Origin: a bacterium
Lineage (GTDB): Bacteria > 4484-113 > JAFGCY01
Assembly: GCA_020440645.1 (NCBI GenBank)
Contig: JAGRNR010000014.1
Coordinates: forward strand, 1,294 to 65,293
Direction: 5' to 3'
Length of the DNA: 64,000 bases
Below, one piece after another: positions 2,241 to 63,919 of the stretch. How positions within the stretch are numbered: position 1 is the first letter of the stretch; each line of letters opens with the position of its first letter. The position numbers and the translations under genes were made by a program. Below the pieces are notes generated by a model. It saw only the letters and a list, made by a program, of their open reading frames with translations, was not told where the DNA came from and searched no databases.

Positions 2241-3605
2241 CTAGTGCGCATGTCCGGCGTGCGGGTCGAAGGTACCCTTGAGCAGTTCCGCCTTCAGCTG
2301 GAAGGCGCCCTCGACGACGATCTCCTCACCGGCGCTTAGCCCGTTGACGATCTCGGTCCCGCTGGCCGTGGTACGGCCGATGCTGACGACTCGCGGTTCG
2401 AATGACTCACCATGGCGCACGAATACCAGCTTGTCCTCATCGAGCTCGATCACGGCATCTCGCGGCACCACGATGTCAACGGTGTCACCGCCGATCTCGA
2501 CATGGCCGGTGACGAACAGGCCGGGGCGGAAGGCTTCGCTGGCCCGCTCCAGCACCACCCTGGCAACGGCGGTGCGGGTGGCCTCGCCGACGATCGGCTC
2601 GATGTAGTCAATGTATCCGGTTTCCGAGGGAATGCCGTGGCCCGGGTCAACCAGCACCTCGAGGCCCTTGCGCACGTCAGCCATGTCCTCCGGATAGACG
2701 TTGAGGTGCACCCACAGGCTGTTCAGGTTGCCAATGGTGAATACCGGCTCCTCGGTGCCAACCATTTCGCCGGCGGTGACATGCTTCTCGATGATCTCGC
2801 CGGAGGCCGGGGCATAGACAGTGAAGCCGGTCAGGCTGGCCTCCGGGTTGGCAATGATGCCCGCGATCTGCTCGTCACTGACTCCCAGCGCATGCAGGGT
2901 CTGCTCGATGCCACGCTTCTCGATGCGCTTCTCGTCAACGGCCTGCTTCGCCTCCAGGTAGTCCTGTTCCGCGCTGATGCCCTTCTCGACCAGCATCTGC
3001 TCACGCTTCGCAGTCTCCTCCAGCAGCTCCAGCTGGCTCAGCACGGCGAGATATGCACTCTTGTGCTCGGCCAGCTCAGTGCTGTCAAGCTCCAGCATCA
3101 CAGCCCCCTGGCGCACATTGTCACCGAGCACGTAATGCACCTTGCGCACGATGCCGTTCACGCGCGGGATCACATGCGTGACGCTGTCCTCGTTGATTCC
3201 GACCTCCCCGGTCAGCTCGAGGTCTCGGCCCAGGCTCCCCGCTCCGGCCGGCGCACTTGCTATCCCCAGCTCGCGGATCTGCTGGGCATCCAGCTCGATC
3301 ATCGCCGGGCCGTCTTCGTGGCCCGCATGGTCATCGTGGCCAGCATGCTCATCAGGTTGAGCGCCATCCTCAGCATGGGCTGCATGGTCGTGCTCATCCT
3401 CCGCGGGTGCAGCCTCGGCATGGGCCGCATGGTCGTGTTCATCCTCCACCGGCTCCGCCTCGGCGTGCGCGGCATGGTCGTGTTCGTCATGGCTGTCCAC
3501 CGCTGTGGCAGACTTGCCGCCCTGTCCGGCCGGACAGCCAGCCAGCGACAGCAGCGCAGCCAGTACGGTCAGCGCCAGTATGCAGTTCCTGTTATTCATT
3601 GTCAT
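2241..3605 (-). CDS. czcB: RND membrane-fusion (periplasmic adaptor) protein, HlyD/CzcB-like, with a His-rich N-terminal repeat region
   Basis: 464-aa ORF (2241..3635). Lipobox-like LSLAGC signal, then repeated HDEHDHAAHAEAEP units, then HlyD/biotin-lipoyl-like and beta-barrel adaptor motifs. An internal Met at 3605 or 3599 avoids the 44-nt overlap with czcC, so the start is uncertain. Confidence 0.85.
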   Translation of the reverse strand: MTMNNRNCILALTVLAALLSLAGCPAGQGGKSATAVDSHDEHDHAAHAEAEPVEDEHDHAAHAEAAPAEDEHDHAAHAEDGAQPDEHAGHDDHAGHEDGPAMIELDAQQIRELGIASAPAGAGSLGRDLELTGEVGINEDSVTHVIPRVNGIVRKVHYVLGDNVRQGAVMLELDSTELAEHKSAYLAVLSQLELLEETAKREQMLVEKGISAEQDYLEAKQAVDEKRIEKRGIEQTLHALGVSDEQIAGIIANPEASLTGFTVYAPASGEIIEKHVTAGEMVGTEEPVFTIGNLNSLWVHLNVYPEDMADVRKGLEVLVDPGHGIPSETGYIDYIEPIVGEATRTAVARVVLERASEAFRPGLFVTGHVEIGGDTVDIVVPRDAVIELDEDKLVFVRHGESFEPRVVSIGRTTASGTEIVNGLSAGEEIVVEGAFQLKAELLKGTFDPHAGHAH

Positions 3606-5073
3606 TTTCCTCTGTTGCCTGCGGCTCCGGCTCATCCCGGATCTCGATCAGCTGCACATCCCGATCCCCCGATGGGCCGGCCCAGTCGGCCATGCCCATG
3701 TCCAGCAGGGATTCGATCTCGGCCACCGCCAGGCGGTACTCCACCAGTGCGGCGGTCTGCTCGCTCTCCAGCTCCAGCACCGTGCGCTGGGCATCGAGCA
3801 CGTCCAGCAGGCCGAACTTGCCGTAGTGGTAGCCTTCCTCGGTCAGCGCCAGCGCTTCGTTGGCACTGGGCAGCAGGCTGCGGCCGTAGTCGCGGTAGTT
3901 GGCAAGCGCCAGCGTGGCCTGCGCATGCAGCTGGCTGAGCTGCATCCGGGTGTCGAGCCGTGCCGCGTCACGTGCATGCTGCACCTGCTCCCGGCGGTGG
4001 TAGGCAGCGTTGATCCCGCCCTCGTTCTTGTCATGCACGGGCAGCTCCCATGCCACGCCGACCTTGAACACCGTCTCCTGGATCTCATTGAGCCGGCTGA
4101 TCCCGCCGAACAGTTCGAGGTCCGAAACCGAATTGGCATTTTCCAGTGACAGCAGCGCATTGAGTGCGTCGTACTCCGCATCGAACCTGGCAACCGCCGG
4201 CAGGCCCTCGATCACCTGCTCCAGCTCGCTGAGCTCCAGCAGGTCCGGGCCGGCACCGTTTCCGGCATCGACAGAGTCGAAATCCGGTTCACTGATGCCC
4301 ATCGCCGTTGCCAGGCTGCGCAGGGACAGCTCGCTTGAGCGTTCGGCGGAGCCGATCTGCAGGTCGAGGCGTGCCAGCTCGATGTCCAGCCGCTCCAGTT
4401 CGAGCCGCGCACTGCGCCCGGCCTCAACACTGGCGGCCACCGTGTCATAGATGTGCTGCACCAGCTGGCGGTAACGGCCAAGCTGCTCCAGCTCATAGCG
4501 GGATGACTGCGCTTCGGCATAGGCCATGCGCACCGCCGAGCGTATCTCGTACTCCAGTTCGGCGATGTCCCATTGCACCAGTTCACCCTCCAGCCGCGCC
4601 GTGGCCTCGCGCAGGCTGCGCTTGCCGCCACGCTCGAGGGACTGGCTGTAGGTCAGGTGCGTTGCCAGCGCCTTCACGCCGGTGGCTTCCTGTGTGCCGC
4701 CGAACTCCTCGAGTTCAACCTCGACCGCCGGGTTGGGCTTGCGTCCCTGCTGGAAAGCCTCGCTCTGCATTGCCTGGTATTCGCGGCGCAGCGCGGCGAT
4801 GCCGGGATGGTCAGCGAGGGCACGGCGCAAGGCATCATCGAGGCTCAGCACATGCTGGCCGCTTGCCAGCTCAATCGCACGGGTCTCGAGCGCCTCGGCC
4901 CCGAACAGCGCCTCGACGACGCCCGGAACTTCCGGGGGAGGAGCCTGGGACTGTGTGTCCTGCAGGGTCACTTCAGTAACTGTGATCGTGTCGGCCAATG
5001 CCAGGGTCGGTAGTGCCGCCAGCAGCATCGTCAATATCAGCAATGCGCTGCATTGCCTGAAAGCAATTTGCAT
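3592..5073 (-). CDS. czcC: Outer-membrane efflux protein, TolC/CzcC family
   Basis: 493 aa with signal peptide MQIAFRQCSALLILTMLLAALPTLALA. Two long coiled-coil/beta repeat halves typical of OEP family. Sits immediately upstream of czcB-czcA in the canonical C-B-A order. Confidence 0.8.
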   Translation of the reverse strand: MQIAFRQCSALLILTMLLAALPTLALADTITVTEVTLQDTQSQAPPPEVPGVVEALFGAEALETRAIELASGQHVLSLDDALRRALADHPGIAALRREYQAMQSEAFQQGRKPNPAVEVELEEFGGTQEATGVKALATHLTYSQSLERGGKRSLREATARLEGELVQWDIAELEYEIRSAVRMAYAEAQSSRYELEQLGRYRQLVQHIYDTVAASVEAGRSARLELERLDIELARLDLQIGSAERSSELSLRSLATAMGISEPDFDSVDAGNGAGPDLLELSELEQVIEGLPAVARFDAEYDALNALLSLENANSVSDLELFGGISRLNEIQETVFKVGVAWELPVHDKNEGGINAAYHRREQVQHARDAARLDTRMQLSQLHAQATLALANYRDYGRSLLPSANEALALTEEGYHYGKFGLLDVLDAQRTVLELESEQTAALVEYRLAVAEIESLLDMGMADWAGPSGDRDVQLIEIRDEPEPQATEENDNE

Positions 5074-5136
5074 GGAATCTTCTCCGGGAATGTGGTGAGC
5101 AGAAGCGGGCCGGGCGGCCCAGCGGGAGAAGTCGGT

Positions 5137-5613
5137 CTAGATCAGCAGGCAGGTGGACTCGGAGAAGAGTTCAGCCGCAGTGGGCGGTGAACCATCCTGG
5201 TTGTCCACGAAGGCGGACATCGGGTTGCCGGTGCTTGCTGCCGGTGCAGCATCAAAGCTGTAAAGGCAGCCACCAAGCCAGTGGTGCACGGCGACGGTCT
5301 TGGCCTTGATCAGCCGGTTGACCGGGCTGGCATGCAGCACCTGGTCCTGGCAGGAAGCACAGTGGCGGTGGGAATAACTTTCCTGACCCGGTCCACCATG
5401 CTCGTGCATCTCCGCCTCACTGCATTCCAAGCAGGCTTCGCTTGAACTGGATATGCACTGGCCGTTGACGGCCTGCTCGAGGCGCGGCAGCTGGCCTGAT
5501 TCGTGGCAGAGCACGAACTGCATCGGGGCAGGGCTGGTCAGCACGAGCAGCACAAGGCAGATGCGCACCGTGTGGCGCGCAAATGCGGTGAATGCTGTCT
5601 GCCTGAATGCCAT
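5137..5613 (-). CDS. Small secreted Cys/His-rich protein, possibly metal-binding, upstream of the czc operon
   Basis: 158 aa with a signal-peptide-like N-terminus (RICLVLLVLTSPAP). Many Cys/His (CHESGQ, CLECSEAEMHEHGG, HRHCASC). Position is analogous to the small periplasmic czcI-type genes. No family was recognised. Confidence 0.45.
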   Translation of the reverse strand: MAFRQTAFTAFARHTVRICLVLLVLTSPAPMQFVLCHESGQLPRLEQAVNGQCISSSSEACLECSEAEMHEHGGPGQESYSHRHCASCQDQVLHASPVNRLIKAKTVAVHHWLGGCLYSFDAAPAASTGNPMSAFVDNQDGSPPTAAELFSESTCLLI

Positions 5614-5821
5614 GCCTTCCTGATCAGGGGTTGCCCCCAGGCGCGCAGATTACCACGCCATTCGCCGCAGTGTCAATTCACGGCAGCCCAGTGAGAATCA
5701 ACTATCAACAGTATTAGGACTATCCTGCCTTCTGGCATATACTGCGCATCAGCGGATGACCGGCAAGGTACAGATAGAGAGTCCATCAGGCGAGGATGGA
5801 AGCAGGTCGGAGCTGGAAGCA

Positions 5822-6847
5822 ATGCGGAAGCTGCTGCTCTGCGCGCTGCTTGTCGCTGCCTGCCTGCTGGCCAGCCTGCTCTTCCTCGCGGCATTTGTAA
5901 CCAAGGGGCTTGGACTCGGCGAGCTAGGCCGGCTGCCCGTGCTGCATCAGTGGTACCGCCAGCATGAATCGGACCCGCAGCCGGGCATCATTGTGCTGGG
6001 TGACAGCCTCGGACGATCGGCATTCAACGCCCGGCATGTGAATGAGTCTGCTGCCATCGGCCAGCCGACTGCATGGAACCTTGCCAGCTCCGCTCGCAGC
6101 TACCCCGAGATGCTGCTGGACATCGGCCAGCCGGCGCTGGCAGATTCCACCATCCTTCTTTTCGTGTCCCCGGTGACGAGCTTCAACCCCAGCAAGCTGG
6201 CCATCAACCCGCGCAAGGCCAATACATACGCCCTGCTCGGATTGCCTGAACGATTCAGTGACAACCGCGAAAGGTATGGCAGTGCCCTCGACGCACAGTC
6301 CATGGTGCTGCTGGACCGCCCACGCTGGCAACAAATGGCCTACGCCCGCTGGCGCCTGCCGGAATGGCTGAAGGACTCGCTGCAGGTCAGTTTCGGTGCC
6401 AACCGCGAGCGCCACAGATACCTGCTCGGTGAATACAACACAGACCTGTCCTACCCACGCTTCGGCCGCTCACTGGACGGTGATGGACTGGCCCGCGCGG
6501 TGGATGCCAGAATCGAACTGCTGCATGACCCCGGCTACTGCGGCATCAGCGAGGAGAGTTGCCAGCAGGCCCTGCGCGACATCGTCGACGGCCTGGCGAA
6601 CACCGGCAGCGAACTGGTGGTCGTGATGTACCCGCTGCACCCCGCCTATCGGGACTGGCTGGCGCGAGAGTATCCGCAGTACGGTGCGGACTGGCTGCAG
6701 GATGTGCTTGGCCCTGGGCGGCGGATCATCGACATCAGTGATTTCAGCGTGGACGGCCTGTTCCGTGACGACCTGCACATCAGTGACGAAGCCTCCATCA
6801 CACTGACGGAGCACCTGCTGCAGCTGCTGCGGGAGGACGGAAGCTAG
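5822..6847 (+). CDS. Membrane-anchored SGNH/GDSL-like protein (AlgJ/DltD/PatB-like acyl-transfer partner)
   Basis: ORF 5756..6847. Likely start is ATG 5822 (MRKLLLCALLVAACLLASLLFLAAF, a TM anchor, preceded by GGAGCTGGAAG). The GDS(L) block VLGDSLGRSAF fits. Its stop overlaps the GTG start of the downstream MBOAT gene. Confidence 0.6.
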   Translation: MRKLLLCALLVAACLLASLLFLAAFVTKGLGLGELGRLPVLHQWYRQHESDPQPGIIVLGDSLGRSAFNARHVNESAAIGQPTAWNLASSARSYPEMLLDIGQPALADSTILLFVSPVTSFNPSKLAINPRKANTYALLGLPERFSDNRERYGSALDAQSMVLLDRPRWQQMAYARWRLPEWLKDSLQVSFGANRERHRYLLGEYNTDLSYPRFGRSLDGDGLARAVDARIELLHDPGYCGISEESCQQALRDIVDGLANTGSELVVVMYPLHPAYRDWLAREYPQYGADWLQDVLGPGRRIIDISDFSVDGLFRDDLHISDEASITLTEHLLQLLREDGS

Positions 6848-11643: not shown

Positions 11644-14600
11644 ATGGAAAACAGGGAGCAGGATGGAGCCGCTAAACTCCCGCAGCAGACGGACCCGCTG
11701 GAGCCCAGTGCCAACCCGAAGCTGAACATCGGCGGCCTGATCGCCCAGACATTCATTGACAACAAGACCACCTTCCTCGTGATGGTGGCCGCCTTCATCT
11801 TCGGCCTGTTCGCGCTGTTCGTCACCCCGCGTGAGGAGAACCCGCAGATCAGCGTGCCGGCCGTCAACGTGATCATCCCCTTCCCCGGCGCCTCGCCGCA
11901 GGAGATCGAGAACCTCGTCACCTCACCGATGGAACGGCGGATCTGGAACATCAAGGGCATCGAGCACGTGTACTCGATCAGCTACCCCGATTTCGCCGTT
12001 GTCACCGCGCAGTTCCTCGTCGGCGAGGAGCAGGAGGACAGCGTCTTCAAGGTCTACAACCAGGTCTATTCCAACCTGGACAGCCTGCCCGCCGGGACGC
12101 AGCAGCCGATCGTCAAGCCGGTTGACATCAATGACGTGCCGATCGTCGCGATCACCCTGTTCAGCGCCGAACACGATACACATGCGCTGCGTACGGCGGC
12201 GGAACACCTCGAGCAGGGCCTGCGCGAGGTGCCCGGCACCAGCTCCAGCGTGATCGTCGGCGGCGACGGCCGCCAGATCACCATCGAGATGGACCCTGTC
12301 CGGAGCGCGGCCTTCGGCATCGACCCGCAGATGGTTGCCAATGCATTGCAGGGTGCCAACGTGCGCCTGCCCAGCGACCGCCTGGAGACCGGCGGGCAGC
12401 GCCTGATGGTGCGCAGCGGCCAGTTCCTGCGCAATGCCGAGGATGTCGGCAGCACCGTGCTGACGACGCGCGGCAGCGGCATCCCGGTCTACCTGCGTGA
12501 CATCGCGAGTGTGACGGACGGCCCGGCTGAGATCTCCAACGTCAGCCGGCTGAGCTTCGGCGCCGGCACCCAGCACGTCAGCGCGGAGGGCCATGGCCTG
12601 CGCGGTGGCTTCAGCGGGCAGGAATTCGAGACCAGCGGCCGCAGCTTCAACGCAGTCACAGTTGCCGTTGCCAAGCAGAAGAGCACCAATGCCGTGAAGA
12701 TCTCCGAGGCCGTGATCGAGCGCATGGACGAGCTCGGTCCGCTGGTGCTGCCTGACCGGACAGGCTGGCTGATCACGCGTGATGACGGTGAGGGTGCCAA
12801 CCATGCCGTCAACGAACTGATCACGCACCTGACCTGGGCAATCGTGATCGTGCTTGGCCTGCTGCTGCTGGCGCTCGGCTGGCGCGATGCCGCGGTGGTC
12901 GCTCTGGCGATCCCGCTCACGTTGCTGGTCACGCTCGGCATCGGCTTCCTCGCCGGCCAGACCATCAACCGCATCACCCTGTTCGCCCTGATCCTCAGCC
13001 TCGGCCTGCTGGTTGACGACGCGATCGTCGTCGTGGAGAACATCCACCGCCACCTGAAGATGAAGGCCGCCTGCGAGGGCAAGCTGCGCACCTGCGTTCT
13101 CGCTGTCAACGAAATCAGCAGCCCGACGATCTACGCCACCTTCACCGTCGTGCTGTCAATGATCCCGATGGCCTTCGTGACAGGCATGATGGGGCCATAC
13201 ATGGCACCGATCCCGTTCAATGTGCCGGTGGCGATGATCGTCAGCCTGATCGTGGCCTTCAAGGTCACGCCCTACCTCGCGGTGCGCTGGCTGAAGGCCG
13301 ACCACCATGCAGCTGATAATGGCAAGGACGCGAATGGCAAGGACTCCGCGAAAGGCACATCCGGCTCAACTGATAAGCCCGCTCCGGCGATTGACCTGAC
13401 GCATGGCGCTGACCCGAAGCTGCTGGCCTTCTACCGCCGGATGCTCGGCCCGCTGATTGACAGCAAACCGCGCCGTGCGGTGCTGTTCAGTGTGCTGGTG
13501 ATTGCGCTGCTCATCAGCTTCACCTTCCCGGTGCTGCAGTGGGTCAAGTTCCGCATGCTGCCCAAGGCCAACAAGAACACCTTCCTCGTGACGGTGGACA
13601 TGCCCGCCGGCAGCAGCCTGAATGCCACCGACAGCCTGGTGCGCGACATCGAGGAACGCCTGCTTGCGCATCCCGAGGTCAGCTCCCTTGTGACCACCGT
13701 CGGCACCGGCAGCGTGATCGACTTCAACGGCCTGCTGCGCGGCACTTCCTTCCGCAATGATGCGGCCCAGGCTGACATCCGTGTCAACCTGACGCCGAAG
13801 GAGGAGCGCAGCATCGCCAGCGAGCGGATCGTGCTGGACATCCGCCCCGAGCTGGCCGCGCTGGCCAGCGAGAAGCAGGCGATCCTCAAGCTGGTGGAGG
13901 ACCCGCCCGGGCCACCGGTGCGCGCCACCGTACTGGCCGAAATCTACGGCCCCTACGGCGAGGGCCAGCGCAGTGCCGTTGCCAATGTGCGCGGGATGTT
14001 CGCCTCCACTGACAGCGTGGTTGACATTGACGACTCGGTCAGCACAGCGGCCCGGGAGCTGCGCATCGAGGTGGACCGTGAGCGCGCCGAGCGCAGCGGC
14101 CTGCGGGCCTCTGACGTCGCCACCGCGCTGTATGCCGCACTGGCCGGTTACGAGATCACCGCGCTGCATGACCCGGCCGGGATGGTGCAGACCCCGGTGG
14201 TGCTGCGATTCCCGCAGCAGTTCCGCAGCCAGCTGGCGGACCTCGACAGCGTGGTGCTGCCTTCGCCCGCCGGCAACATCCCGCTGTCATCCATCACGCG
14301 CATGCGTGAGACCGATGCGCTCAGGCCGATCCACCACAAGGACCTGCGCCAGGTGAGCTATGTCTATGGCGAGATGGCCGGACGTTCCAGCGTGTACGCG
14401 ATCTTCGACATGATGGCGAAGTTGAAGCAGGACCCGCTGCCGCCGGCCTATGAACTGGTCTGGGAGGGCGAGTGGGACCTGACTCTCAAGGTGTTCCGTG
14501 ACCTCGGAATGGCAATGGGAGTGGCGATCCTCCTGATCTACCTGCTGATGGTCGGCCGCTTCCACAGCTTCAGCGACCCGCTGGTGATCCTCGGCGCGGT

Positions 14601-14991
14601 GCCGCTGACGATGCTTGGCGTGCTGCCCGGCTTCGCCCTGCTTGGCAACTTCGACATCTACTTCTCGGCGACCGGCATGATCGGCGTGATCGCGCTGGCC
14701 GGCATCGTGGTACGCAACTCGATCATCCTGATTGAGTTCATCCAGGATGCGCTCAATGAAGGCGTGCCGCTGCGCGAGGCTGTGATCCTCGCCGGTGCGA
14801 TCCGCACCCGCCCGATCGTGCTGACCGCGCTGGCAGCGATCGCCGGCATGCTGGTGGTGGTGGCGGACCCGGTCTGGAGCGGCCTGAGCTGGGCGCTCTT
14901 GTTCGGCATCCTCGCCAGCACCACCCTGTCACTGCTGGTGATCCCGCTGCTGTACTACATCGCCAAGGAAAAAACCGGAGGTCAGGCGTGA
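11644..14991 (+). CDS. RND efflux permease (AcrB/HAE1-like, 12 TM), 1115 aa
   Basis: Typical RND N-terminus (LIAQTFIDNKTTFLVMVAAFIFGLFALFVTPREENPQISVPAVNVIIPFPGASPQEIE) and two TM bundles. Contains a Lys/Asp-rich insert near residue 560. No OMF gene is adjacent. Confidence 0.9.
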   Translation: MENREQDGAAKLPQQTDPLEPSANPKLNIGGLIAQTFIDNKTTFLVMVAAFIFGLFALFVTPREENPQISVPAVNVIIPFPGASPQEIENLVTSPMERRIWNIKGIEHVYSISYPDFAVVTAQFLVGEEQEDSVFKVYNQVYSNLDSLPAGTQQPIVKPVDINDVPIVAITLFSAEHDTHALRTAAEHLEQGLREVPGTSSSVIVGGDGRQITIEMDPVRSAAFGIDPQMVANALQGANVRLPSDRLETGGQRLMVRSGQFLRNAEDVGSTVLTTRGSGIPVYLRDIASVTDGPAEISNVSRLSFGAGTQHVSAEGHGLRGGFSGQEFETSGRSFNAVTVAVAKQKSTNAVKISEAVIERMDELGPLVLPDRTGWLITRDDGEGANHAVNELITHLTWAIVIVLGLLLLALGWRDAAVVALAIPLTLLVTLGIGFLAGQTINRITLFALILSLGLLVDDAIVVVENIHRHLKMKAACEGKLRTCVLAVNEISSPTIYATFTVVLSMIPMAFVTGMMGPYMAPIPFNVPVAMIVSLIVAFKVTPYLAVRWLKADHHAADNGKDANGKDSAKGTSGSTDKPAPAIDLTHGADPKLLAFYRRMLGPLIDSKPRRAVLFSVLVIALLISFTFPVLQWVKFRMLPKANKNTFLVTVDMPAGSSLNATDSLVRDIEERLLAHPEVSSLVTTVGTGSVIDFNGLLRGTSFRNDAAQADIRVNLTPKEERSIASERIVLDIRPELAALASEKQAILKLVEDPPGPPVRATVLAEIYGPYGEGQRSAVANVRGMFASTDSVVDIDDSVSTAARELRIEVDRERAERSGLRASDVATALYAALAGYEITALHDPAGMVQTPVVLRFPQQFRSQLADLDSVVLPSPAGNIPLSSITRMRETDALRPIHHKDLRQVSYVYGEMAGRSSVYAIFDMMAKLKQDPLPPAYELVWEGEWDLTLKVFRDLGMAMGVAILLIYLLMVGRFHSFSDPLVILGAVPLTMLGVLPGFALLGNFDIYFSATGMIGVIALAGIVVRNSIILIEFIQDALNEGVPLREAVILAGAIRTRPIVLTALAAIAGMLVVVADPVWSGLSWALLFGILASTTLSLLVIPLLYYIAKEKTGGQA

Positions 14992-15200
14992 GCCTGACAA
15001 CGGAGGTCCGGCGCAAGCCGGGCGTGGAGGTCGAGCGCAAGCTCGGCAATGAGTTTGGTGCTTGGAGTGGGGGGTTTGGATGCAGCCGCATTGCGGAGGC
15101 CCGATGGACCTGCGGCGCAAGTCGCACAATGAGAGGGAGGTCAGCTGTAAAGCTGACAAGGTAGCGCACACAGACTCCAAAATAGAGTCCACGGAGTTTT
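14975..15200 (+). repeat. Array of about 5 short hairpins, each preceded by GGAGGTC and three capped by GNRA tetraloops
   Basis: GGAGGTC-AGGC-GTGA-GCCTGAC; GGAGGTC-CGGC-GCAA-GCCGG; GGAGGTC-GAGC-GCAA-GCTCG; …GCGGCGCAAGTCGC…; GGGAGGTC-AGC-TGTAAA-GCTGAC. It starts 14 nt after the RND permease stop. The 24-mer GGAGGTCCGGCGCAAGCCGGGCG recurs at 24001-24023. Confidence 0.6.
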
Positions 15201-15256
15201 CCATAATGGGAAGGGCTGATAGTGTTGCAATAAAACGGCGCGCATTTCCTGTCGGA

Positions 15257-15409
15257 CTATCTGTCACCCCCGCCTTCCATTATCATCGGTTCTCTTGCTT
15301 CCTTGAAATCAGCAAGGTAGTTCACCAACGCATACATTGCCACTGCGATAGCCGCAATGATCAGCAAGGGCAGAATGAACCTGAATGATTCTGATGTCCT
15401 AACTTGCAT
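15257..15409 (-). CDS. Hypothetical single-TM small protein (50 aa)
   Basis: A GGGAGGGA RBS sits 6 nt before ATG (complement 15407-15409), giving MQVRTSESFRFILPLLIIAAIAVAMYALVNYLADFKEAREPMIMEGGGDR. It lies in a low-GC patch downstream of the lipoprotein gene. Confidence 0.3.
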   Translation of the reverse strand: MQVRTSESFRFILPLLIIAAIAVAMYALVNYLADFKEAREPMIMEGGGDR

Positions 15410-15493
15410 GTCTGTCCCTCCCACGATTCTTCTGGATAATGAGAGCACTCATGCTGGAGTTTTGTTCCGGGAGAGTGTCTAAGCGTTTATTGC

Positions 15494-16801
15494 CTACTGC
15501 CCATCCTTAGCAACTTCCGCATCCGCTGCCAAGGGGTAGTCCGCTTCGATTGTCCGCCCCATCGGCTCAATGTCAACGAGGAAGAAGCCATCGCTTGACT
15601 GAACTAGCAATCCTTCCGGCAGTTCATTGATGCTGCCACCGTAGAAGTCTTCGGTTAGCAGCCTGGCAAGCAGTTGCAACCGCGGAACTCCTCCATCCAG
15701 CGGAATACCCTCATGAGGCAGCTCCAGGATGGAAACACTATCGCGATCGCCAGCCAGGATGTACATGCCATGCTCCCCGAAGCCGACATCATTCGTTTTC
15801 ATGATGTACTCATTGCCCATAAGATTGCTGATGCCCTGGTTCAGCTGCAGCGTATGCGCCTTGCCATCCCGGATGACAACCAGCATGTCCCGGTTGAAGT
15901 TATAGGCCAGGATATCGCCGCCCACATTGCCGATCCTGAAGCGTGTGTGCTCGTCATAGCCAATCCTGAACTCCTCCTCGCTGATCACAACCGGCACCGC
16001 AGGATCCGCCGGGTCATAACTGACATGGTTATAGACCACCGGGAACTCCTCAACCGGCCAATTCCCCGTGCTGCGCCTGCCATTGCTGATCAGTTCGTAA
16101 CCGATGACAAGTTCCTGCTCGTCAAACCATGTCATCAGTTTCCAATGCTTCGTCACATGGAAACTCGTTGCCATTTTCCACTCATCGGCACTGAATTCCT
16201 GCAGGTCTTCCAGCCTGAACAGGCAGCGCGGATCCATATCCAGCAGGTGGATGAAATCCTCTTCGCCGGTGTAGTCAAAGTTGATCTGCGGATTCTCCGG
16301 CGGATTGCTGATTATGTGATCAAGCAGCAGGCCAGCCAGCAAGCCGTTGTCAGCTTCAACTATCCGAAAATCGAATTGCCCGGTCCAGCTATCTTCCATT
16401 TTGACCCAGTCCTCATGGGTCCAGTCCCGGGTTTCCTCCGGACTTGGATCATCCATCTCATAGTGGCCCTGGACCTCCATAAGCTGACCGTCCACAAGAT
16501 TGATTGCGCCGGGATGAATGAAGTGCTTGCTTGGAATTGAACCGGGATCTCGGTAGATCCGGATCCTGCACAGCCCCTCCCCAAGCGGGACAATCCGGAC
16601 ACTCGGCAGCCCCGCCAGTTCGTCAGGCACAAATTCCTGCTCGGGGTTTTCATTCAGGTACGGCAGCAAGTCAGGTTCCTGTCTCGGCGGCATCTGCTGC
16701 ATGGCCTCGGCGTATTCCTCAGCCGGATCCGGTTCGTTGCATGCAGCCAGCGAAAGCGCAAGGCCGAGTATCACAATCAAACTGCTGGCAAGCCTGGACA
16801 T
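15494..16801 (-). CDS. Hypothetical lipoprotein (435 aa), acidic, lower GC than its surroundings
   Basis: Signal plus lipobox MSRLASSLIVILGLALSLAAC. No recognisable catalytic motifs. Visibly AT-richer codon usage, and located adjacent to tRNA-Val. Confidence 0.6.
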   Translation of the reverse strand: MSRLASSLIVILGLALSLAACNEPDPAEEYAEAMQQMPPRQEPDLLPYLNENPEQEFVPDELAGLPSVRIVPLGEGLCRIRIYRDPGSIPSKHFIHPGAINLVDGQLMEVQGHYEMDDPSPEETRDWTHEDWVKMEDSWTGQFDFRIVEADNGLLAGLLLDHIISNPPENPQINFDYTGEEDFIHLLDMDPRCLFRLEDLQEFSADEWKMATSFHVTKHWKLMTWFDEQELVIGYELISNGRRSTGNWPVEEFPVVYNHVSYDPADPAVPVVISEEEFRIGYDEHTRFRIGNVGGDILAYNFNRDMLVVIRDGKAHTLQLNQGISNLMGNEYIMKTNDVGFGEHGMYILAGDRDSVSILELPHEGIPLDGGVPRLQLLARLLTEDFYGGSINELPEGLLVQSSDGFFLVDIEPMGRTIEADYPLAADAEVAKDGQ

Positions 16802-23020: not shown

Positions 23021-23955
23021 TCGGCCGCCCCTTCATCCGGCACATCCTCGCTTGCCAGCTGCGCCATGTCGAAACTGTCAACGCTGATCTCGTACAGCTG
23101 CTTCACGCCCTCGAGCGCGGCATCGAGCTTCTCTCGCTGCTGTGCCTCGATCCAGTCCCGCTCGACATCCTCGCGGATCTCCCCCAGCTCCAGCGGCCGG
23201 CCCGCGCGCCGCTCCTCGATGAACACGAGGTGCACGCCGTAGCTGCTTTCCACCGGTCCGCTCCAGGCGCCGACGGGGAAGTCCCTGATTGCATCCGCGA
23301 ACAGCGGGTCGAACTGCCAGCCGATTTCACTGAGCGCCACCAGTGGCAGGCGCGGCGGCAGGCTGCCCGCATCGCTCAGCTCCTGCACCAGCCCAAGTTC
23401 CTCAGTGCCCGTCAGCTGCTGCTTCAGCAGTTCGGCATCCAGCAGCGGCTCCGCGCGCTGCAACGGGTCGAGATAGATCTGCATTAGGCTCAGCGAATCC
23501 TCCGTGCGGTAGCGCTCGGGGTGCTCCTCGAGGAACTGCTGCAGCTCTTCTTCCGTCGGCGTGGGCGGCTCGCTGCCATCATCCAGCAGCAGCTCGTACT
23601 TGCTGCGCAGGTGGTCACGGATCAACTGGTCGTCACGGTCCAGTCCCATGCCGCGCGCCTCGCGCACGCAGACTTCCGTGCGGATGTAGTCGTCAATCAG
23701 CTCCTGCAGCTCAGCCTGCGTCGGCTCACGGTCGAAGTCGCGCACGAAACCGTGGTACATCACCGCGATGCGCGGGCGGTCGACAGTGATCTCAAACTCG
23801 CTCTCATCCGCAGGCTGCTGGCGCAGGTTGCTCAGCAGGAACAGCAGGCCGCCGACCAGGATGAAGTGCACGATCGGCTCGCGCCATATCGAATGCGGCC
23901 GCGCTTCCGCACCGCCGCCATCGCCTGCCTGGTTAAGTTTCTGGTTATCTGCCAT
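23017..23955 (-). CDS. Membrane-anchored parvulin-type peptidyl-prolyl isomerase (PpiC domain)
   Basis: 312 aa. N-terminal TM is IVHFILVGGLLFLLSNL. The C-terminal PpiC signature GPVESSYGVHLVFIEERR fits S-x-(F/Y)G-x-H(L/I)(V/I). First gene of a 4-gene coupled operon. Confidence 0.65.
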   Translation of the reverse strand: MADNQKLNQAGDGGGAEARPHSIWREPIVHFILVGGLLFLLSNLRQQPADESEFEITVDRPRIAVMYHGFVRDFDREPTQAELQELIDDYIRTEVCVREARGMGLDRDDQLIRDHLRSKYELLLDDGSEPPTPTEEELQQFLEEHPERYRTEDSLSLMQIYLDPLQRAEPLLDAELLKQQLTGTEELGLVQELSDAGSLPPRLPLVALSEIGWQFDPLFADAIRDFPVGAWSGPVESSYGVHLVFIEERRAGRPLELGEIREDVERDWIEAQQREKLDAALEGVKQLYEISVDSFDMAQLASEDVPDEGAAE

Positions 23956-24103
23956 GTCTCCTGCCGGCCCTGACCGGATTGCAGATTATGGCGCATGACC
24001 GGAGGTCCGGCGCAAGCCGGGCGGAGTGTTGGTCTTAGACCAACAAGGCCCTGTAGCTCTAAGAGCTACACTCCGCTACCCCCTACAACCGAGTTCCTAT
24101 GTC

Positions 24104-24565
24104 CTACTTCATTTCCTCAATCATTGAGCGCATCTTCTCCGCGCTGACCCCGCTCGAGCGCCTCACCTCAATCACGCCGTCCGGCTTGCCATCCCCGTCC
24201 ATGTCCTGCCCGGCTGCCATGTCCTCCCCGAAGCCCAGCAGGATGTAGTCCTTCACCTCATAGCCGTCATGCACCGCGATGTAGCAGACGTTGCCAGCGG
24301 CCAGCTCGCCGGCGGTGAAGGCCACCGGATGCATCTCAGTGCGGTCGTATGGATTGATGAGCGCCATGTTCTGCCCGTCCTTCATAAGGTCGGCATTCAG
24401 CGTCTCCGGGTACAGCCCGCCGTTCTGGCGCGCCCAGTCCAGCAGGTTCTGCTCAATGGTTGCAATGTGCGCCTTGAGCTCCATGTCCGCCAGGCTGTCC
24501 GCCGCCGGCTGGTTACAGCCGGCCAGCAGGGCCAGCATTGCCATTGCAATCCAGAAAAGCTTCAT
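24104..24565 (-). CDS. Hypothetical lipoprotein (153 aa)
   Basis: Signal plus lipobox MKLFWIAMAMLALLAGC. Asp/Gly-rich C-terminus (DMDGDGKPDG). No family recognised. Confidence 0.55.
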   Translation of the reverse strand: MKLFWIAMAMLALLAGCNQPAADSLADMELKAHIATIEQNLLDWARQNGGLYPETLNADLMKDGQNMALINPYDRTEMHPVAFTAGELAAGNVCYIAVHDGYEVKDYILLGFGEDMAAGQDMDGDGKPDGVIEVRRSSGVSAEKMRSMIEEMK

Positions 24566-25730: not shown

Positions 25731-25835
25731 GGGTGCCCTTCCCACGGGACGGCCCGCAGGGGGGAAGAAGAATTATAACACTGCATCAGGGGCCGCAAGC
25801 CACCCAGTGATGAGAAAAGAGAGAAGAGCCTGAAT

Positions 25836-25933
25836 AGCAATGAGCAATGAAGAGTGAGCAATGATCCAATGGAGAAGCGGGGTCACCTCCCCCTGGTCAG
25901 GCTCATTGCTCATCACTCATTTCTCATTGCTCA
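25836..25933. repeat. Hairpin built from GAGCAATGA nonamer repeats (family B)
   Basis: AGCAATGAGCAATGAAGAGTGAGCAATGA … CTCATTGCTCATCACTCATTTCTCATTGCTCA, with a nested GGGGTCACCTCCCC loop. Confidence 0.7.
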
Positions 25934-33927: not shown

Positions 33928-34039
33928 TGTCTTGTCCTGCCGTTCGCAGCGGCAGGAAGATTATATAAGGTGCGGTGGAGCTACCCGCTTCAGCGGTAGG
34001 AGGCCAGGCTGTTAGCCTGGCGGCGGGATGGGGGATGCC

Positions 34040-34136
34040 GAGCAATGAAGCATGAGTCCTGAGCAATGAGCCAATCCTGACTGAGCTAACTTCGATGCAA
34101 CATGGACTCATTGCTCAATCTTCATTGCTCATTGCT
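34040..34136. repeat. Family B hairpin (GAGCAATGA)n between the transketolase-C gene and the inserted hydrolase gene
   Basis: GAGCAATGAAGCATGAGTCCTGAGCAATGAGCC … GGACTCATTGCTCAATCTTCATTGCTCATTGCT. Confidence 0.7.
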
Positions 34137-36116: not shown

Positions 36117-36552
36117 GTGTCACGAGCCATTCTAGCAATCATTCACAGGTATTCGCCAGCCGGCCTGTCCGACATCCCCAAACCAGGTTTCAGGGAACTG
36201 GGAGCAGGGATCAGAATGATTTGTCGCGCTTCGCGCGCCAGTCCCATTTCCTGACAGCAAAGCTGTCAGAATGTCCCGCAACCTGAAAGCTGCCACCAGC
36301 AAACTGGATCACCCCACCCGGAATGTCCGGCTGGCGCAAGGCAGACTGGAGTAAATGGACACAACATGGTTGCCAACAAGCTGCCTAAAGGGAACTCCGT
36401 GCTCTCTGTGCCCTCTGTGGTTAAATCCTTTGCGCACTCGTCGTGCAGCTAAGGCCGCAGCTTAACTACCGCTAAAGCGGGTAGCTCCGCCCCGAAACCT
36501 GCAACCAGCCACCTGCAACCAGCAACCTGATGTGCGACTAAAGTCGCACCTC

Positions 36553-37641
36553 CTACTCCACCGGTGACATTTCCCGGAAGTGGTCCGGCTTGACCGCGTC
36601 AGGGTGCAGGGTGTTGTGGCGCTTCTCGGTGATCGTCAGGTCCGCCGGGCCGCCCGGGCCCTCGCTGTCCATGTGCACCACGCGTGCCCAGGGGCTGGCC
36701 TGGATCTGCTGCACCACGCCGTCGTAGACCGGCGCGCCGTACTCCGCGCGTACCTCGTCGAGGTTCTCGAATTCATAGCCGAGCGCCTTCAGGCAGGCAG
36801 TGGCCTCCGCATCGGTGCAGGCCTTGCCGTGCCACTTGAAGATGTCCTCGTACTCCGGCACGCCCTTCATCATCGTGGTGTGGAAGATCAGCGCCTTCGG
36901 GCTGCCCTCCTGCTTGCGGGCCCAGCTCCAGGCCGCGTTGATCGCGTCCAGGTCATGCCCGTCCACGTTCTGCACCAGCCAGTGGCAGGCCTCCAGCTTC
37001 CTGTCCAGCGGGTCGAGGCGCTTCACGTCCTTCACGCGGCCGTCGATCTGGATATCGTTGTAGTCGCAGCTCATCACCAGGTTGTCCGTGCCACGGTGCC
37101 CTGCGTGCATGATCGCTTCCCAGATCTGCCCTTCCTGCATCTCGCCGTCGCCGACGTTGCAGTAGACGAACTGCTCGCCCTTGCCCTCGAGCTTCTTCCC
37201 AAGCGCCATGCCATGCGCGACGCTGAGGCCCTGCCCAAGCGAGCCGGTGCCGATCTCAATGCCCGGTAGCTTGATATGGTTCGGATGGCCCTGCAGGCGG
37301 CTCGGGGTGGAGCGGAAGGTCAGAAGGTAGCCCGGGCTGAAGAAGCCGCGGCGTGACAGCAGGCTGTACTGCAGCGCGCTGACGTGGCCGTTTGAGATCA
37401 CGAACTTGTCGCGGTCCGGCCAGTAGGGCTCATGGGGGCGGATGCGCATGTGGTTGAACAGCAGCGCCGCGGTGTAGTCGGCCATGCTGAACGGCCCGCC
37501 GGTATGGCCGCTGTTGGCGGCATTGGTCATCATCACCGCGTCCTTACGCAGCGTGCGCGCGACCTCCCTGAGCTCATCGTTGCCCAGATTGAGCGTGTCG
37601 GCCTTAAGGCTGCGTTCGCGGATTTCGGCGTGTGAAAGCAC
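36553..37641 (-). CDS. Transketolase N-terminal subunit (TPP-binding domain)
   Basis: 362 aa. NAANSGHTGGPFSMADYTAALLF…GSLGQGLSVAHGMAL…CNVGDGEMQEGQIWEAIMHAGH…LVMSCDYNDIQIDG are the TPP-binding transketolase motifs. It has a C-terminal extension of about 80 aa. Confidence 0.85.
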   Translation of the reverse strand: MLSHAEIRERSLKADTLNLGNDELREVARTLRKDAVMMTNAANSGHTGGPFSMADYTAALLFNHMRIRPHEPYWPDRDKFVISNGHVSALQYSLLSRRGFFSPGYLLTFRSTPSRLQGHPNHIKLPGIEIGTGSLGQGLSVAHGMALGKKLEGKGEQFVYCNVGDGEMQEGQIWEAIMHAGHRGTDNLVMSCDYNDIQIDGRVKDVKRLDPLDRKLEACHWLVQNVDGHDLDAINAAWSWARKQEGSPKALIFHTTMMKGVPEYEDIFKWHGKACTDAEATACLKALGYEFENLDEVRAEYGAPVYDGVVQQIQASPWARVVHMDSEGPGGPADLTITEKRHNTLHPDAVKPDHFREMSPVE

Positions 37642-47666: not shown

Positions 47667-47835
47667 TCCAGTCAGGCTTCCCGCTGAAATCAGCCCCGGC
47701 TGGCCTCCCGGCGGGCGATCTGAGCCCCAGTTTTCCGTTTTACGTATTCCGCAGCATCGGTTGGATTTAAGTTAAATGCCGGGTACAACCAACGGTTGCA
47801 GCTGCCTCCAGGCCCTGCGATCGAGGAGCCAAATA

Positions 47836-50800
47836 ATGCGTTTCAATCGGACCAAGATCTACCTTCTGATGTTGTTGCTGATGCCGGCTGTGCTGGCCTC
47901 CTGTGGCGCAGGTGGCGGTAGCGCGGTTTCATCCCTTGATGCAGCTTCCCAGCCGTCGGTTCCACTGCAGGGTAATGCCCCGCTGGCAGATGGCCTGCCA
48001 GCCCTGGACCAGCTGCCCGAGCCATCGCGCAGTGCGATGCTCAGCGGCCCGGGATACTTCCCGGTGCCGATCCTCGAGCAGGGCGTGATGCTGCAGCGCA
48101 GTGGTTCGGTCGTCTCCGGCCCGCAGGGCATCGAGCTGGATGGCAGCGCAGGTGAGGCCTGGGTGCTGTTCGGGGTCTATGGCTTCGACGGTGACAGCCA
48201 GCCGAACGCCGTAATGGCGGAGGCCACCGATGTGCAGGGCAGTTTCCATATCGGCGTCACGCACTACGCCAGCGGACGCTGGGAGTGGAGCGCGCCCTTC
48301 ACCGGCGATGAGGAGCATGAGTACGAGCACGTGGCCCAGTACACCGTGGCCGACCAGTATGTCAGCGAGCGTGGCTTCCACTACATCGCCGTGCTGGCGC
48401 CGGAGGGCTCGAGCCTGCTGCTCAGCGGCCTGCAGCTCGGGGTGGACGGCGGTGACAACGCACCCGTCGCGCCGGACTACTTCGAGATCAGCAATGGTGA
48501 CGCCGGCTTCCACTTCTGGTGGTACCCTAGCCCGGACCATGACGACCCGGACTTCGCCGGCTACACCATGCAGCGCGCCCTGTGGCCCGGCACCGACTTC
48601 CAGGACCTCGGCCCGCTCTCACACGAGACCTTCTACCATGACGCTGCAGCCGACCCGGCCCTGCTCTACCGCTACCGTGTACGCGTGGCGGATGTAAGTG
48701 GCAACTCCAGCTGGGGTTATTCCAACACCCCGGTCAGCGTCAGTGGCGACAACTACCCGGTGCCGGCGCTGGAGATGCCGGCCGGGCCGCTCTACGGCGG
48801 GCAGATGGTGACATTCGACCTCAGCGGCAGCTATGACCCCGACGGCGAACCGCTCACGGAATACACGGTCCAGTTTGACAACACGAACGGCATGGGCGGC
48901 GTCGGCCCGCTCACCAGCACCGACCCGCAGATCAGCGTGCTGCTGCAGCCCGGCTGCTACGTGGTGCAGGCCGCGGCCAAGTCCACCGTCTACTGCCAGC
49001 CGATCGTTGACACGCTGAAGATCTACCCGGCCTGGCAGCCTGAGCCGCAGCTGGTGGCCGAGCCCGGCAGCGGGCAGTGGCGCATGCAGTCCAGCCGCAG
49101 CATCTACTGGCCACAGGGCGACGCAATCGTCACATTCTTCAATGACTACCTCGGCCCCGGCCTCGGCGCGCTCGTGCAGCATGCCGACGGCAGCCGGGAG
49201 GTCCTGCAGCTGCCCTACTACCTGTACGACATCGACTGGATCTCCGAGCCGGTGGTCTGGCAGGGCCAGCCCTATGTCGGCGTCGTGTCTGACAACGTGA
49301 TGCTACTGGCGACCATCGGGGCGGACGGCCTGCAGTGGATTGAAGGCGGCCTCGGCTACACCGGCTTTGTGAACATCGATCTCGTGGTGGACGGCGAGGA
49401 CCAGCTGCGGGTCTGCACCCTGAATGAATACAACCCCGGGGACTTCGAGGTGCTCGCGATCAATGCCGGCAACCCGCTCGACATCTACACCCTCGAGTTC
49501 ATGTCCAATTCCGACGGTCCGTTTGACGTGGAGTGGAACCCGGAATACGGCGGCTTCGAGCTGATTTACACCACGGTCGGCAGCATCCACTGGAACCGCA
49601 CCGATGAGGAGGGTGGCCTGGTTGTCGACGACTTCGTCGGCGCGGGCATCTTCGATTCACTGGACATGGAACTCCATGCGGACGGCAGCCCCGGCGTGAT
49701 GGGCCGCTCCGGTGGGTCCTTCGTCTACTTCTCCTTTGACGAGGGCACCGCCAGCTGGTCAGCACCCGAAGTGATCGAGCCGATTGGCCTGAACGGCAAG
49801 TCCGGCGACCTGCTGTTCGATGGCAACGACATGGCAGCCTTCTTCGGCCTGGCGGTGGGCCAGTCATCGCTATACCGCCGCAACGGCGGCAGCTGGGACC
49901 CGCAGACCGTCAACTGGGCGCTGCTTTCCGGCCAGCACTGCGCCATCGCCCAGTGGCCCGACGGCCGCGTGAACATCATCGACGGCACGGTGGGCGGCGC
50001 GATCTTCATCTCCGACTTCAATGAGGATGGCAGCCACCCCGCCCCGATTGAGGTTCCCTCCGTTTCCTGGGACGGCATTGACTTGAATGCCGTCGCCGGG
50101 GCTGACGGCATCCACGCCGTCTGGCGTGGTGACAACGGTGCGATCCATTACATCGCCGACGACGACGGCACCAATTGGAACGCCTCCACCGGCTTCGTCA
50201 GCAGCGATGCACTTGAGCTGATGGCGGACGAGAACGGCAAGGTGTTCGTCGGCAACACCCACGGTGCGACCGCCGACCTGTTCAGCTGGTTCGGCGGCGC
50301 CTGGCTGATCGAGGGCAGCTCCAACCGCTGGGGCAGCAGCCTGCCTTACCTCGCCGCCCAGCGTGATGCCCCCGGCGGACAGTTCATCGTGCAGGATGAC
50401 CTGCCAGTGCCGCCAGCGCTCAGGCACATGCATGACGACGGCGGCGGCTTCCTCGTGTTTGACAGCTACGATTTCGACACGATCCGGATTGACGAGGGGG
50501 TGTCCCTCTTCACGGGCGCCGGGCTGATCAGCTTCGTGCGCGGCGATGAGATCCTCGGTTCCAGTGGGCTGGTCGGCTTCATCTCCGCTGACGACCACAG
50601 CTATGCCCACCAGATACACGACTACCTTTACACCAGCAGCGTTGACCTGACGCGCGGCCGCCGGATGGATGCCTGCAACTACCTGACAGGCCCGTCAAAC
50701 TCGCACAGCGCATTCTGGGTCAGCGGACTCGAGGGCGGCGCTCCCGGCGTGACGCGCTTCCAGGGCAAGGCCTACAACGGCAAGTACAACGTCGACAGCA

Positions 50801-59972: not shown

Positions 59973-60077
59973 GCGCCCTATGATAGCGGAGGCCAGGCAG
60001 GTTGCCTGGCCTCCGGGCCCGTTCCCAACTATCCGGGGCGGGTAGCCGCCTGTGGGCCCCCGGCCCCTGTTCCCGGA

Positions 60078-62708: not shown

Positions 62709-62868
62709 GGTCTTCCTCCCAGTGAGACGGATCTCATATTATCGTGAATGTATTCACGATATACCAGATGATACCGCCATTTAGCGGGAAGTGTGCTGGC
62801 CGCGTGGAAAATCAATTCACTTGTCTGGCTCATTGCTCACTCTTCATTGCTCATTGCTACGCTTCTCC

Positions 62869-63717: not shown

Positions 63718-63850
63718 AGGAGCTCAGGCCCACGGCCTGACAGGAGGCCAATCCCACGGATTGGCAACTGCCTTTTGCCTTTTGCCACCTGCCTACTGCC
63801 TTGTGCCTACTAAAGCGGTCCTTGGGACCGCATACCTGTCAGGCCATGGG

Positions 63851-63919
63851 CCTGACCTCCACTGACTACAGACCACTGACCACTGACCACTGACCACTGA
63901 CCACTGACCACTGATTGCC
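63851..63919. repeat. Tandem heptamer array (TGACCAC)x~9
   Basis: CCTGACCTCCACTGACTACAGACCACTGACCACTGACCACTGACCACTGACCACTGACCACTGATTGCC. The same heptamer is also at 25551-25571 and inverted at 59151-59180. Confidence 0.75.

Follow-up and report, generated by a model that had tools for sequence, protein, structure and literature searches.

A tandem array of GGAG-tagged GNRA hairpins at the end of an RND permease gene and its probable place in a REP/BIME-like repeat family

The window analyzed here (64,000 nucleotides of contig JAGRNR010000014.1 from the bacterial assembly GCA_020440645.1) carries, at the 3' end of a gene for an RND permease, an array of short hairpins that are capped by GNRA tetraloops and, with one exception, introduced by a GGAG tag. 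This array is probably one locus of a lineage-specific, interspersed repeat of the kind represented by repetitive extragenic palindromes (REPs) and bacterial interspersed mosaic elements (BIMEs), and its units would be either a hairpin barrier in the transcribed 3' untranslated region (3' UTR) of the upstream gene or a selfish repeat. REP/BIME is the nearest known kind, from which the GGAG element, judged by its sequence, differs in tag, loop, and layout. We counted about 125 units across 236 kb of DNA, comprising the window and related loci (designated by L numbers) from one metagenome contig and four related metagenome-assembled genomes (MAGs), namely JAWLAZ01 ('bacterium AC1.30'), CP060262.1 ('HK-STAS-UBP7_A-1'), JAGRNT01 ('UBP7 HKST-UBA03'), and JAHEFU01 ('Planctomycetales Ww346'). 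The original prediction, made from the letters of the window, had held that the array is more typical of a structured RNA or a REP/BIME-like family than of a simple terminator, and this view was borne out by covariation in the stems, by the constancy of the GGAG leader, and by the lack of a T-tract. The REP/BIME-like alternative that it offered fits the data, but a discrete small RNA (sRNA) does not, since dozens of unrelated genes are followed by these units, and the number of units varies from gene to gene.

The GGAG hairpin unit and its copies in the window

In each unit, a GGAG tag leads into a 7-bp stem of the form GYC....GRC. This stem is capped by a G-Y-R-A tetraloop, mostly GNRA, and followed by a linker of 2–3 nt that reads AAN or GCG. 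Units of 22 nt plus linker recur with a period of 24–25 nt, always head-to-tail on one strand, in arrays of one to more than eight copies that are sometimes intermixed with other repeated hairpin modules. The tag, which usually reads N-GGAGG and is a look-alike of the Shine-Dalgarno (SD) sequence, is nearly invariant and unpaired. Loops occur in the order GCAA > GTAA > GCGA > GTGA > GAAA, with GCCA and GTCA as variants, and their first G and fourth A are almost invariant.

If sites were required to match only GGAG-N7-GNRA-N7, the number of Watson-Crick pairs was distributed bimodally, with 0–4 pairs at chance sites and 5–7 in family members, and 97 of 170 such sites had 6–7 pairs. When perfect 7-bp G...C hairpins with GNRA loops were picked blind to the leader, an exact GGAG preceded 90 of 107 and GTAG preceded one, and downstream a linker (AAN or GCG) led to the next GGAG. 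The check for covariation that had been proposed for the predicted stems was run on 112 distinct units and supported them: both-sided (double) changes were found in five of the seven stem pairs, and the covariation score was 0.70, whereas shuffles gave 0.23 and controls with slid partners no more than 0.11. As these units had been pre-selected for at least 6 pairs, the percentage of paired positions is not independent evidence. The stems fall into 45 complementary subtypes. In tests partly conditioned on pairing in the GNRA strand, non-Watson-Crick pairs on that strand comprised 58 G.U and 5 A.C, and in each of the 32 multi-unit arrays the GNRA strand folded more stably than the complementary strand, by a mean of 8.8 kcal/mol. 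Covariation, wobble asymmetry, and strand-dependent folding together indicate that the hairpin is maintained in the single-stranded form of one particular strand. A binding site in duplex DNA, such as an iteron, was ruled out by the compensatory stem changes and the wobble asymmetry on one strand.

The RND permease gene (AcrB family; 11644-14991, plus strand) was taken from the list of open reading frames (ORFs), and its product matches Pfam PF00873 (ACR_tran; E = 1.9e-157). Reading of the sequence and a hairpin scan identified five plus-strand hairpins between 14977 and 15157, in agreement with the claim of at least five short hairpins near the RND stop codon, and their stems (four of 7 bp and one of 6 bp) are all distinct, as had also been noted. 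Several details of the original prediction had to be revised. The array had been placed after the RND stop codon, but the TGA (14989-14991) sits within the GTGA loop of hairpin 1, and the last five codons of the gene (15 nt) and its TGA are the sequence of repeat unit 1. GNRA loops, claimed for three of the hairpins, cap all five. The hairpins had been described as consecutive, but a non-unit stretch of 58 nt (15048-15105) breaks the array; the leader GGAGGTC introduces four of the five hairpins (at 14977, 15002, 15026, and 15136), but the fourth hairpin has the degenerate leader GGAC.

Unit 1 (14977-14998, hairpin 14981-14998) comprises GGAG, the stem arms GTCAGGC and GCCTGAC, and a GTGA loop with the TGA at loop positions 2–4; its stem subtype also occurs at two AC1.30 loci (L085 and L110). 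Unit 2 (15002-15023, hairpin 15006-15023), with GGAG, arms GTCCGGC and GCCGGGC, a U.G wobble at pair 2, and a GCAA loop, represents the commonest subtype of the family, which is found in four genomes, and gave the top covariance-model match in the window (41.2 bits). Unit 3 (15026-15047, hairpin 15030-15047) has GGAG, arms GTCGAGC and GCTCGGC, and a GCAA loop. The interruption that follows is GGA-rich and contains GGATGCAGCC, which on comparison with L003 and L069 appears to be a fragment of another hairpin module of the lineage. The decayed unit 4 (15106-15127, hairpin 15111-15126), with arms (C)TGCGGC and GTCGCA(C) around a GCAA loop, is a diverged member of the GTGCGGC...GTCGCAC subtype; intact relatives are present at L108 (353) and L102 (4451), and its covariance-model match is weak (8.6 bits). 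Unit 5 (15136-15157, hairpin 15140-15157; 36 bits with the covariance model) has GGAG, arms GTCAGCT and AGCTGAC, and a GTAA loop, and belongs to a subtype common to AC1.30, UBA03, and UBP7_A-1. All five units and the interruption were read on the plus strand, as was a weak hairpin (GACTC-7 nt-GAGTC, followed by ACGGAGTTTTCC) at 15173-15202, for which the terminator scan made no call and which may, with some uncertainty, be the end of the RND transcript.

The heptamer GGAGGTC occurs 23 times in the window, compared with 9.7 ± 3.3 times in shuffles, none of 100 of which reached 23, and four of the copies lie in a stretch of 181 nt for which the expected number is about 0.03. The plus strand of the array region also folds better than shuffles (z = -3.3). 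A coding origin of the array was ruled out, as the period of 24–25 nt is no fixed multiple of 3, and a 58-aa ORF at 14988-15164 is repeat-derived. A small minus-strand ORF (15257-15448) with a strong SD sequence (GGGAGGG) and a hydrophobic core converges on the array; a public gene call trims it to 50 aa (L116, 6614-6766), and it has no Pfam match.

A verbatim copy of one unit had been reported elsewhere in the window, and the 23-nt sequence GGAGGTCCGGCGCAAGCCGGGCG is indeed identical at 15002-15024 and 24001-24023. This second site is a plus-strand singleton with the sequence of unit 2 (24001-24022, the exact repeat extending to 24023; 37.5 bits with the covariance model). The three-hairpin junction described beside it (24021-24076, plus strand) is real and is itself a repeated module, termed module B, which is Y-shaped and consists of two hairpins and the helix that closes the element (GCGGAG/CTCCGC). 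Compensatory changes were seen in 6 of 20 predicted pairs of module B, and copies of it at L049 (five copies), L068, and L078 show that it accompanies GGAG units in relatives. In the 64-kb window, which is free of the bias with which the related loci were chosen, six units are thus present, at two sites, and variant units occur besides. The latter (33995-34025 on the plus strand, 36528-36557 and 63834-63864 on the minus strand, and 59984-60014) have a GGAG leader and 5-nt or non-GNRA loops; the variant at 36528-36557 adjoins the TAG stop codon of a minus-strand gene (36553-37641; TAGGAGGTGCGACTTTAGTCGCAC), and that at 59984-60014 forms a perfect palindrome whose GGAGG is base-paired to CCTCC.

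Distribution, turnover, and position relative to genes

A pattern consisting of two leaders flanking a GNRA-spaced unit was searched in one genome per species from 185,579 species. This search resulted in at least 115 stretches, most of which (in Actinomycetota and others) were chance matches or coding repeats of 12 nt, and true tandem arrays were present, among the matches listed, only in the four related MAGs. A stricter two-unit pattern applied to metagenome contigs from JGI yielded 33 stretches with one true member (L143); nearly all of the other metagenome matches were GGAGGCCGGCGG coding repeats with a 12-nt period or purine-rich repeats. Since both scans returned few true arrays, the repeat family is rare and lineage-restricted among the matches listed. 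The window belongs to scaffold_6 (232.8 kb) of an activated-sludge metagenome (ERZ28655359), and coding DNA of genes shared by the window and AC1.30 is 72–78% identical. No description of a GGAG-hairpin family was found in the literature on repeats of UBP7, on GNRA loops and REPs, or on SD sequences and REPs.

With a strict gene caller, 34 of 41 clusters were sense to the upstream gene. Four others (L049, L085, L092, and L102) turned sense under looser gene calls and L104 did so after its ORFs were read, and following these corrections every multi-unit array is sense to its upstream gene. Clusters between gene pairs were located between convergent genes in 22 cases, between co-directional genes in nine, and between divergent genes in none. 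At L102, two convergent genes each carry their own sense array, which rules out a replication-strand explanation for the orientation. A sense array lies within 160 nt of 31 genes; its first GGAG begins -1 to +3 nt from the stop codon in 14 of them and at most 30 nt from it in 22, and typical junctions between stop codon and array are TAGGAGGTC..., TAGGGAGG..., and TAGCGGAGG... The stop codon was TAG in 24 of these 31 array genes and in 50 of 113 array-less genes (Fisher p = 0.0011, odds ratio 4.3). As a separate observation, TAG is the commonest stop codon of this lineage of 59–63% G+C (74 of 144 genes called in the window and related loci); TGA is usually the dominant stop codon in G+C-rich bacteria, and such an excess of TAG is unusual. 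A target rule by which arrays insert 3' of TAG was considered and rejected, as only 13 of 57 starts of arrays or segments have a TAG before them, which in nearly all cases is the stop codon, and a TAG lies before just 1 of 68 internal units. Array-bearing genes are housekeeping genes with no relation to one another (dnaA, dnaX, ksgA, and genes for pyruvate kinase, a peroxiredoxin, MoxR, CorC, a pyridoxal phosphate (PLP) enzyme, DUF1501 and DUF1800 proteins, a peptidyl-prolyl isomerase (PPIase), and RND permeases), and no functional theme shared among the array-bearing genes was found.

The arrays turn over rapidly between relatives. The same gene ends at L092 and L102, which are 94% identical, carry three versus six units, with a three-unit block duplicated, and two versus seven units. 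Loci L003 and L069 (83–86% identical) have an identical first unit (TAGGAGGTCATCCGTAAGGATGAC), and L003 has six extra units, while a gene at L110 is followed by at least eight units and its ortholog in the window (47776-51087) by no array. A block of unit 2 plus unit 3 recurs with 93–98% identity at L104, L009, L108, L102, and L092, which are unrelated loci in three related genomes (AC1.30, UBA03, and UBP7_A-1). Thirteen stem subtypes are common to at least two genomes and are more conserved than coding DNA, which implies that units are still being copied, evolve in concert, or are recognized by their specific sequence.

Other repeats accompany the units. L049 contains, within 4150-5850, an 850-nt mosaic of repeated hairpin modules, and a GGAGCTACCCGC hairpin is among the companion modules of the arrays. 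A further hairpin module, GGAGCTACCCGCTTCAGCGGTAG, adjoins GGAG units in the window (~33975-33998 and ~36490-36512), at L003 (~3533-3555), and at L111. A AGCAATGAG-rich family of long inverted repeats, similar to miniature inverted-repeat transposable elements, is present in the window (25835-25931, 34041-34136, and 62826-62867) and in relatives (L078, 3002-3099 and 3320-3410; L069, 3680-3930), and the sequence CAATGAG found 3' of units 3 and 4 in the RND array resembles the edge of this family. Tandem copies of the heptamer CAGTGGT (6–10) lie beside hairpin units on the minus strand of the window (~63865-63910) and of L022 (4720-4790). At the far end of the L049 mosaic lies a gene for a glycine-rich RRM-type RNA-binding protein (4590-4880, plus strand) that has a classical terminator; the proximity of this gene to the mosaic is probably coincidental.

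Interpretation of the arrays

We favor the reading in which the GGAG units are a lineage-specific repeat of the REP/BIME kind. Transcription of the upstream gene would continue through the array, making it the 3' UTR, and the GNRA-capped hairpins would mainly block 3'-to-5' exonucleases or form transcript-end structures, as E. coli REPs do. Because the first stem starts 3–5 nt after the stop codon, a terminating ribosome would have to melt this hairpin, which could modulate termination. Units may spread and be homogenized by duplication of single units or blocks together with recombination, or by a putative single-strand transposase that reads the tag and hairpin.

A number of points weigh against this reading. 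The tags that define REPs (GTAG or CGTC) and their inverted pairing are absent from the GGAG arrays. A pure hairpin barrier explains neither the near-invariance of GGAG nor the sharing of stems between genomes whose coding DNA is 72–86% identical. The unit at 24001 is antisense to both flanking genes, which lie on the minus strand, and the array at L078 (3474-3567) is located beyond a classical terminator. The two transposase-like genes discussed below are flanked by palindromes other than GGAG units. The related loci were picked for holding arrays, which biases copy densities, genes were called by a simple rule based on G+C content at third codon positions (GC3), and the wobble and folding-energy tests share the conditioning stated above. 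Lastly, transcription of the arrays and their stabilizing effect are steps that we infer.

The alternative that survives best, although we regard it as rather unlikely, is that the units are purely selfish DNA, i.e., miniature elements moved by an HUH/Y1 transposase similar to the REP-associated tyrosine transposases (RAYTs) that recognizes GGAG plus hairpin in single-stranded DNA, with position, orientation, and wobble asymmetry reflecting insertion rules and tolerance instead of RNA function. The design of a tag plus a hairpin parallels that of GTAG REPs, which RAYT cleaves (PMC3733652), and both the identical multi-unit blocks at unrelated loci of different genomes and the presence or absence of arrays at orthologous genes agree with this explanation. 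A tblastn search with E. coli RayT and the L078 protein identified two RAYT-like genes in the 236 kb, in two genomes, and at 2 of the 22 loci such a gene has GGAG arrays no more than ~3 kb away. The first (L078, 386-913, minus strand) encodes a protein that matches the NCBIfam model REP_Tyr_transpos (E = 1.6e-15), but at 57 bits it falls below the cutoff of 80 bits, and it has no Pfam match; the gene has 50% G+C in a locus of 59% G+C. The second (L022, ~3796-4285, minus strand; tblastn E = 5e-18) encodes a protein 32% identical to the first. The L078 gene is flanked (361-388 and 977-987) by GTAGGGCAGCAC...GTGCTGCCC palindromes, and the L022 gene (3689-3770 and 4333-4720) by tandem or inverted GGACCGGCGCCGCCCCGCGGCGATTGGGAGG and by GGACCGGCGCCGCC... 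palindromes, none of which were found anywhere else in the 236 kb. These different flanks count against the selfish-DNA explanation, and membership of the GGAG family in the RAYT-mobilized REP families is not supported by the flanks seen. In addition, an insertion bias for a replication strand cannot yield sense arrays at both of two convergent genes, and where an array starts at a distance from a stop codon, it is not generally preceded by TAG.

The GGAGG sequence could be linked to the ribosome, serve as a transposase tag, or be a platform for protein binding. The first of these possibilities underlies a translation-linked 3' element, which we consider unlikely, in which the single-stranded AAGGAGGU/ACGGAGGU linkers directly 3' of UAG stop codons serve as functional SD mimics. 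These mimics would hold on to 30S subunits or ribosomes once termination is complete or would work with the first hairpin to adjust termination or ribosome rescue at the upstream gene. The lineage uses canonical SD sequences: in 37% of genes an SD core precedes the first ATG, the background being 8.8%. The unpaired, nearly invariant GGAG, the 14 of 31 arrays that begin next to the stop codon, and the enrichment of TAG all agree with such an element. E. coli REPs within ~15 nt of a stop codon are said, from work by Liang, Rudd, and Deutscher in 2015, to stall ribosomes and trigger trans-translation. However, about one-third of arrays start more than 30 nt from the stop codon and some are located after terminators, the internal units of long arrays are distant from any stop codon, and GGAG could equally be a transposase tag, like GTAG in REPs. 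A broader proposal, to which we assign a similarly small chance, is that the arrays constitute an undescribed class of 3'-UTR RNA in which strings of GNRA hairpins with single-stranded SD mimics, located immediately 3' of (mostly UAG) stop codons, act on the ribosome or as a platform for an RNA-binding protein. If this were true, the arrays would be devices for 30S capture or recycling, for modulation of termination or rescue, or for a lineage-specific protein that reads the stems, and not REP-like filler.

The two remaining explanations are both very improbable. In one, 14977-15200 would be a discrete regulatory sRNA with its own transcript, a sponge of the CsrB/RsmZ type whose GGA motifs titrate a CsrA-type protein; nine GGA motifs do lie between and around stable hairpins within ~225 nt of a strand that folds better than shuffles, but the linkers, not the GYRA loops, carry the GGA motifs, and the units follow ~30 unrelated genes in variable copy number. 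A scan of 14500-15700 found no promoter-like or terminator-like site on the plus strand at the array, and the Rfam search suggested with the original prediction (Rfam 15) returned no RNA family at either site: the gathering-level matches in the window were three tRNAs only, and at E ≤ 10 the regions 14900-15300 and 23940-24120 gave nothing but noise. In the other, the units would be ordinary intrinsic terminators stacked for efficiency, in keeping with stable G+C-rich hairpins directly 3' of genes and often between convergent genes; this scarcely fits units that have no T-tract and continue into AAN or GCG and the next GGAG, in a lineage with classical terminators composed of a hairpin plus a T-run (L049, ~4916; L078, 2974-3002), one of which precedes an array, nor does it fit nine arrays between co-directional genes, one of them 56 nt from the next gene, or the GGAG tag and shared stem alleles, which are not terminator features. 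A CRISPR array was ruled out by the 2–3 nt linkers, the differing stems, and the lack of spacers.

As a repeat of the REP/BIME kind, the family would add to REP-like repeats a third type of tag (GGAG) and a layout that is head-to-tail, sense, and abutting stop codons. Its host lineage (UBP7) is uncultured, and almost nothing is known of its biology. Strict rules of strand, an SD-like tag, and stems shared between diverged genomes are unusually clean features of this family and make the question of selfish DNA versus functional RNA testable in it. In practical terms, the arrays will confuse gene callers, as in the RND gene, to which the repeat gives the last five codons and stop codon, as well as predictors of sRNAs and terminators, and they also make useful markers with which to bin the lineage and type its strains.

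Comparison with known repeats and RNAs

REPs are palindromes of 20–40 bp with a GTAG or CGTC tag at one end, complementary stem sub-families, and frequent G.T pairs; most are paired in inverted orientation, head-to-tail dimers being rare or absent, and GTAG REPs are tied to RAYT transposases (PMC3733652, PMC2817692). They are located mostly within 20 bp of the 3' ends of ORFs, between convergent or unidirectional ORFs (PMC3733652). The GGAG units likewise are short extragenic palindromes in dispersed copies near ORF 3' ends, with a conserved tetranucleotide at one end, complementary stem sub-families, and G.T pairs, and they also occur in mosaics and vary in copy number between relatives. In contrast to REPs, their tag is GGAG, a sequence that does not appear in the text of PMC3733652, and their loops are GNRA-type tetraloops instead of the short TY/CMA loops described for REPs. 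The units are arranged exclusively head-to-tail with a fixed period of 24–25 nt, with none of the head-to-head or tail-to-tail pairing of REPs; BIMEs alternate in orientation, whereas the GGAG mosaics with other modules keep a direct one. The arrays are also strictly sense to the upstream gene, and no cognate RAYT was identified in the 236 kb. The two RAYT-like genes resemble REPtrons in that each is flanked by palindromes, but these are not GGAG-GNRA units and are not dispersed in the 236 kb.

With CsrB/RsmZ RNAs, the RND array shares dense GGA motifs interleaved with hairpins. Those RNAs present GGA in hairpin loops and come from dedicated genes, each of which has a promoter and a terminator; the RND array has GGA in linkers, and GGAG arrays would be appended to the mRNAs of many genes. 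Like the mycobacterial interspersed repetitive units (MIRUs) and the pneumococcal BOX elements, GGAG units are intergenic, in direct tandem, oriented with flanking genes, and variable in copy number, and MIRUs are also similar in overlapping the upstream stop codon. MIRUs, however, are units of 40–100 bp with short ORFs and are not tagged hairpins, BOX elements are built of fixed A-B-C modules, and neither has GNRA hairpins or a GGAG tag. A functional parallel may be the E. coli REP, which Newbury et al. reportedly described in 1987 as a stabilizer of mRNA 3' ends: the GGAG arrays would similarly place stable hairpins near the upstream stop codon in a presumptive 3' UTR, and they differ from the E. 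coli REP in carrying an SD-like single-stranded tag and in forming longer direct arrays.

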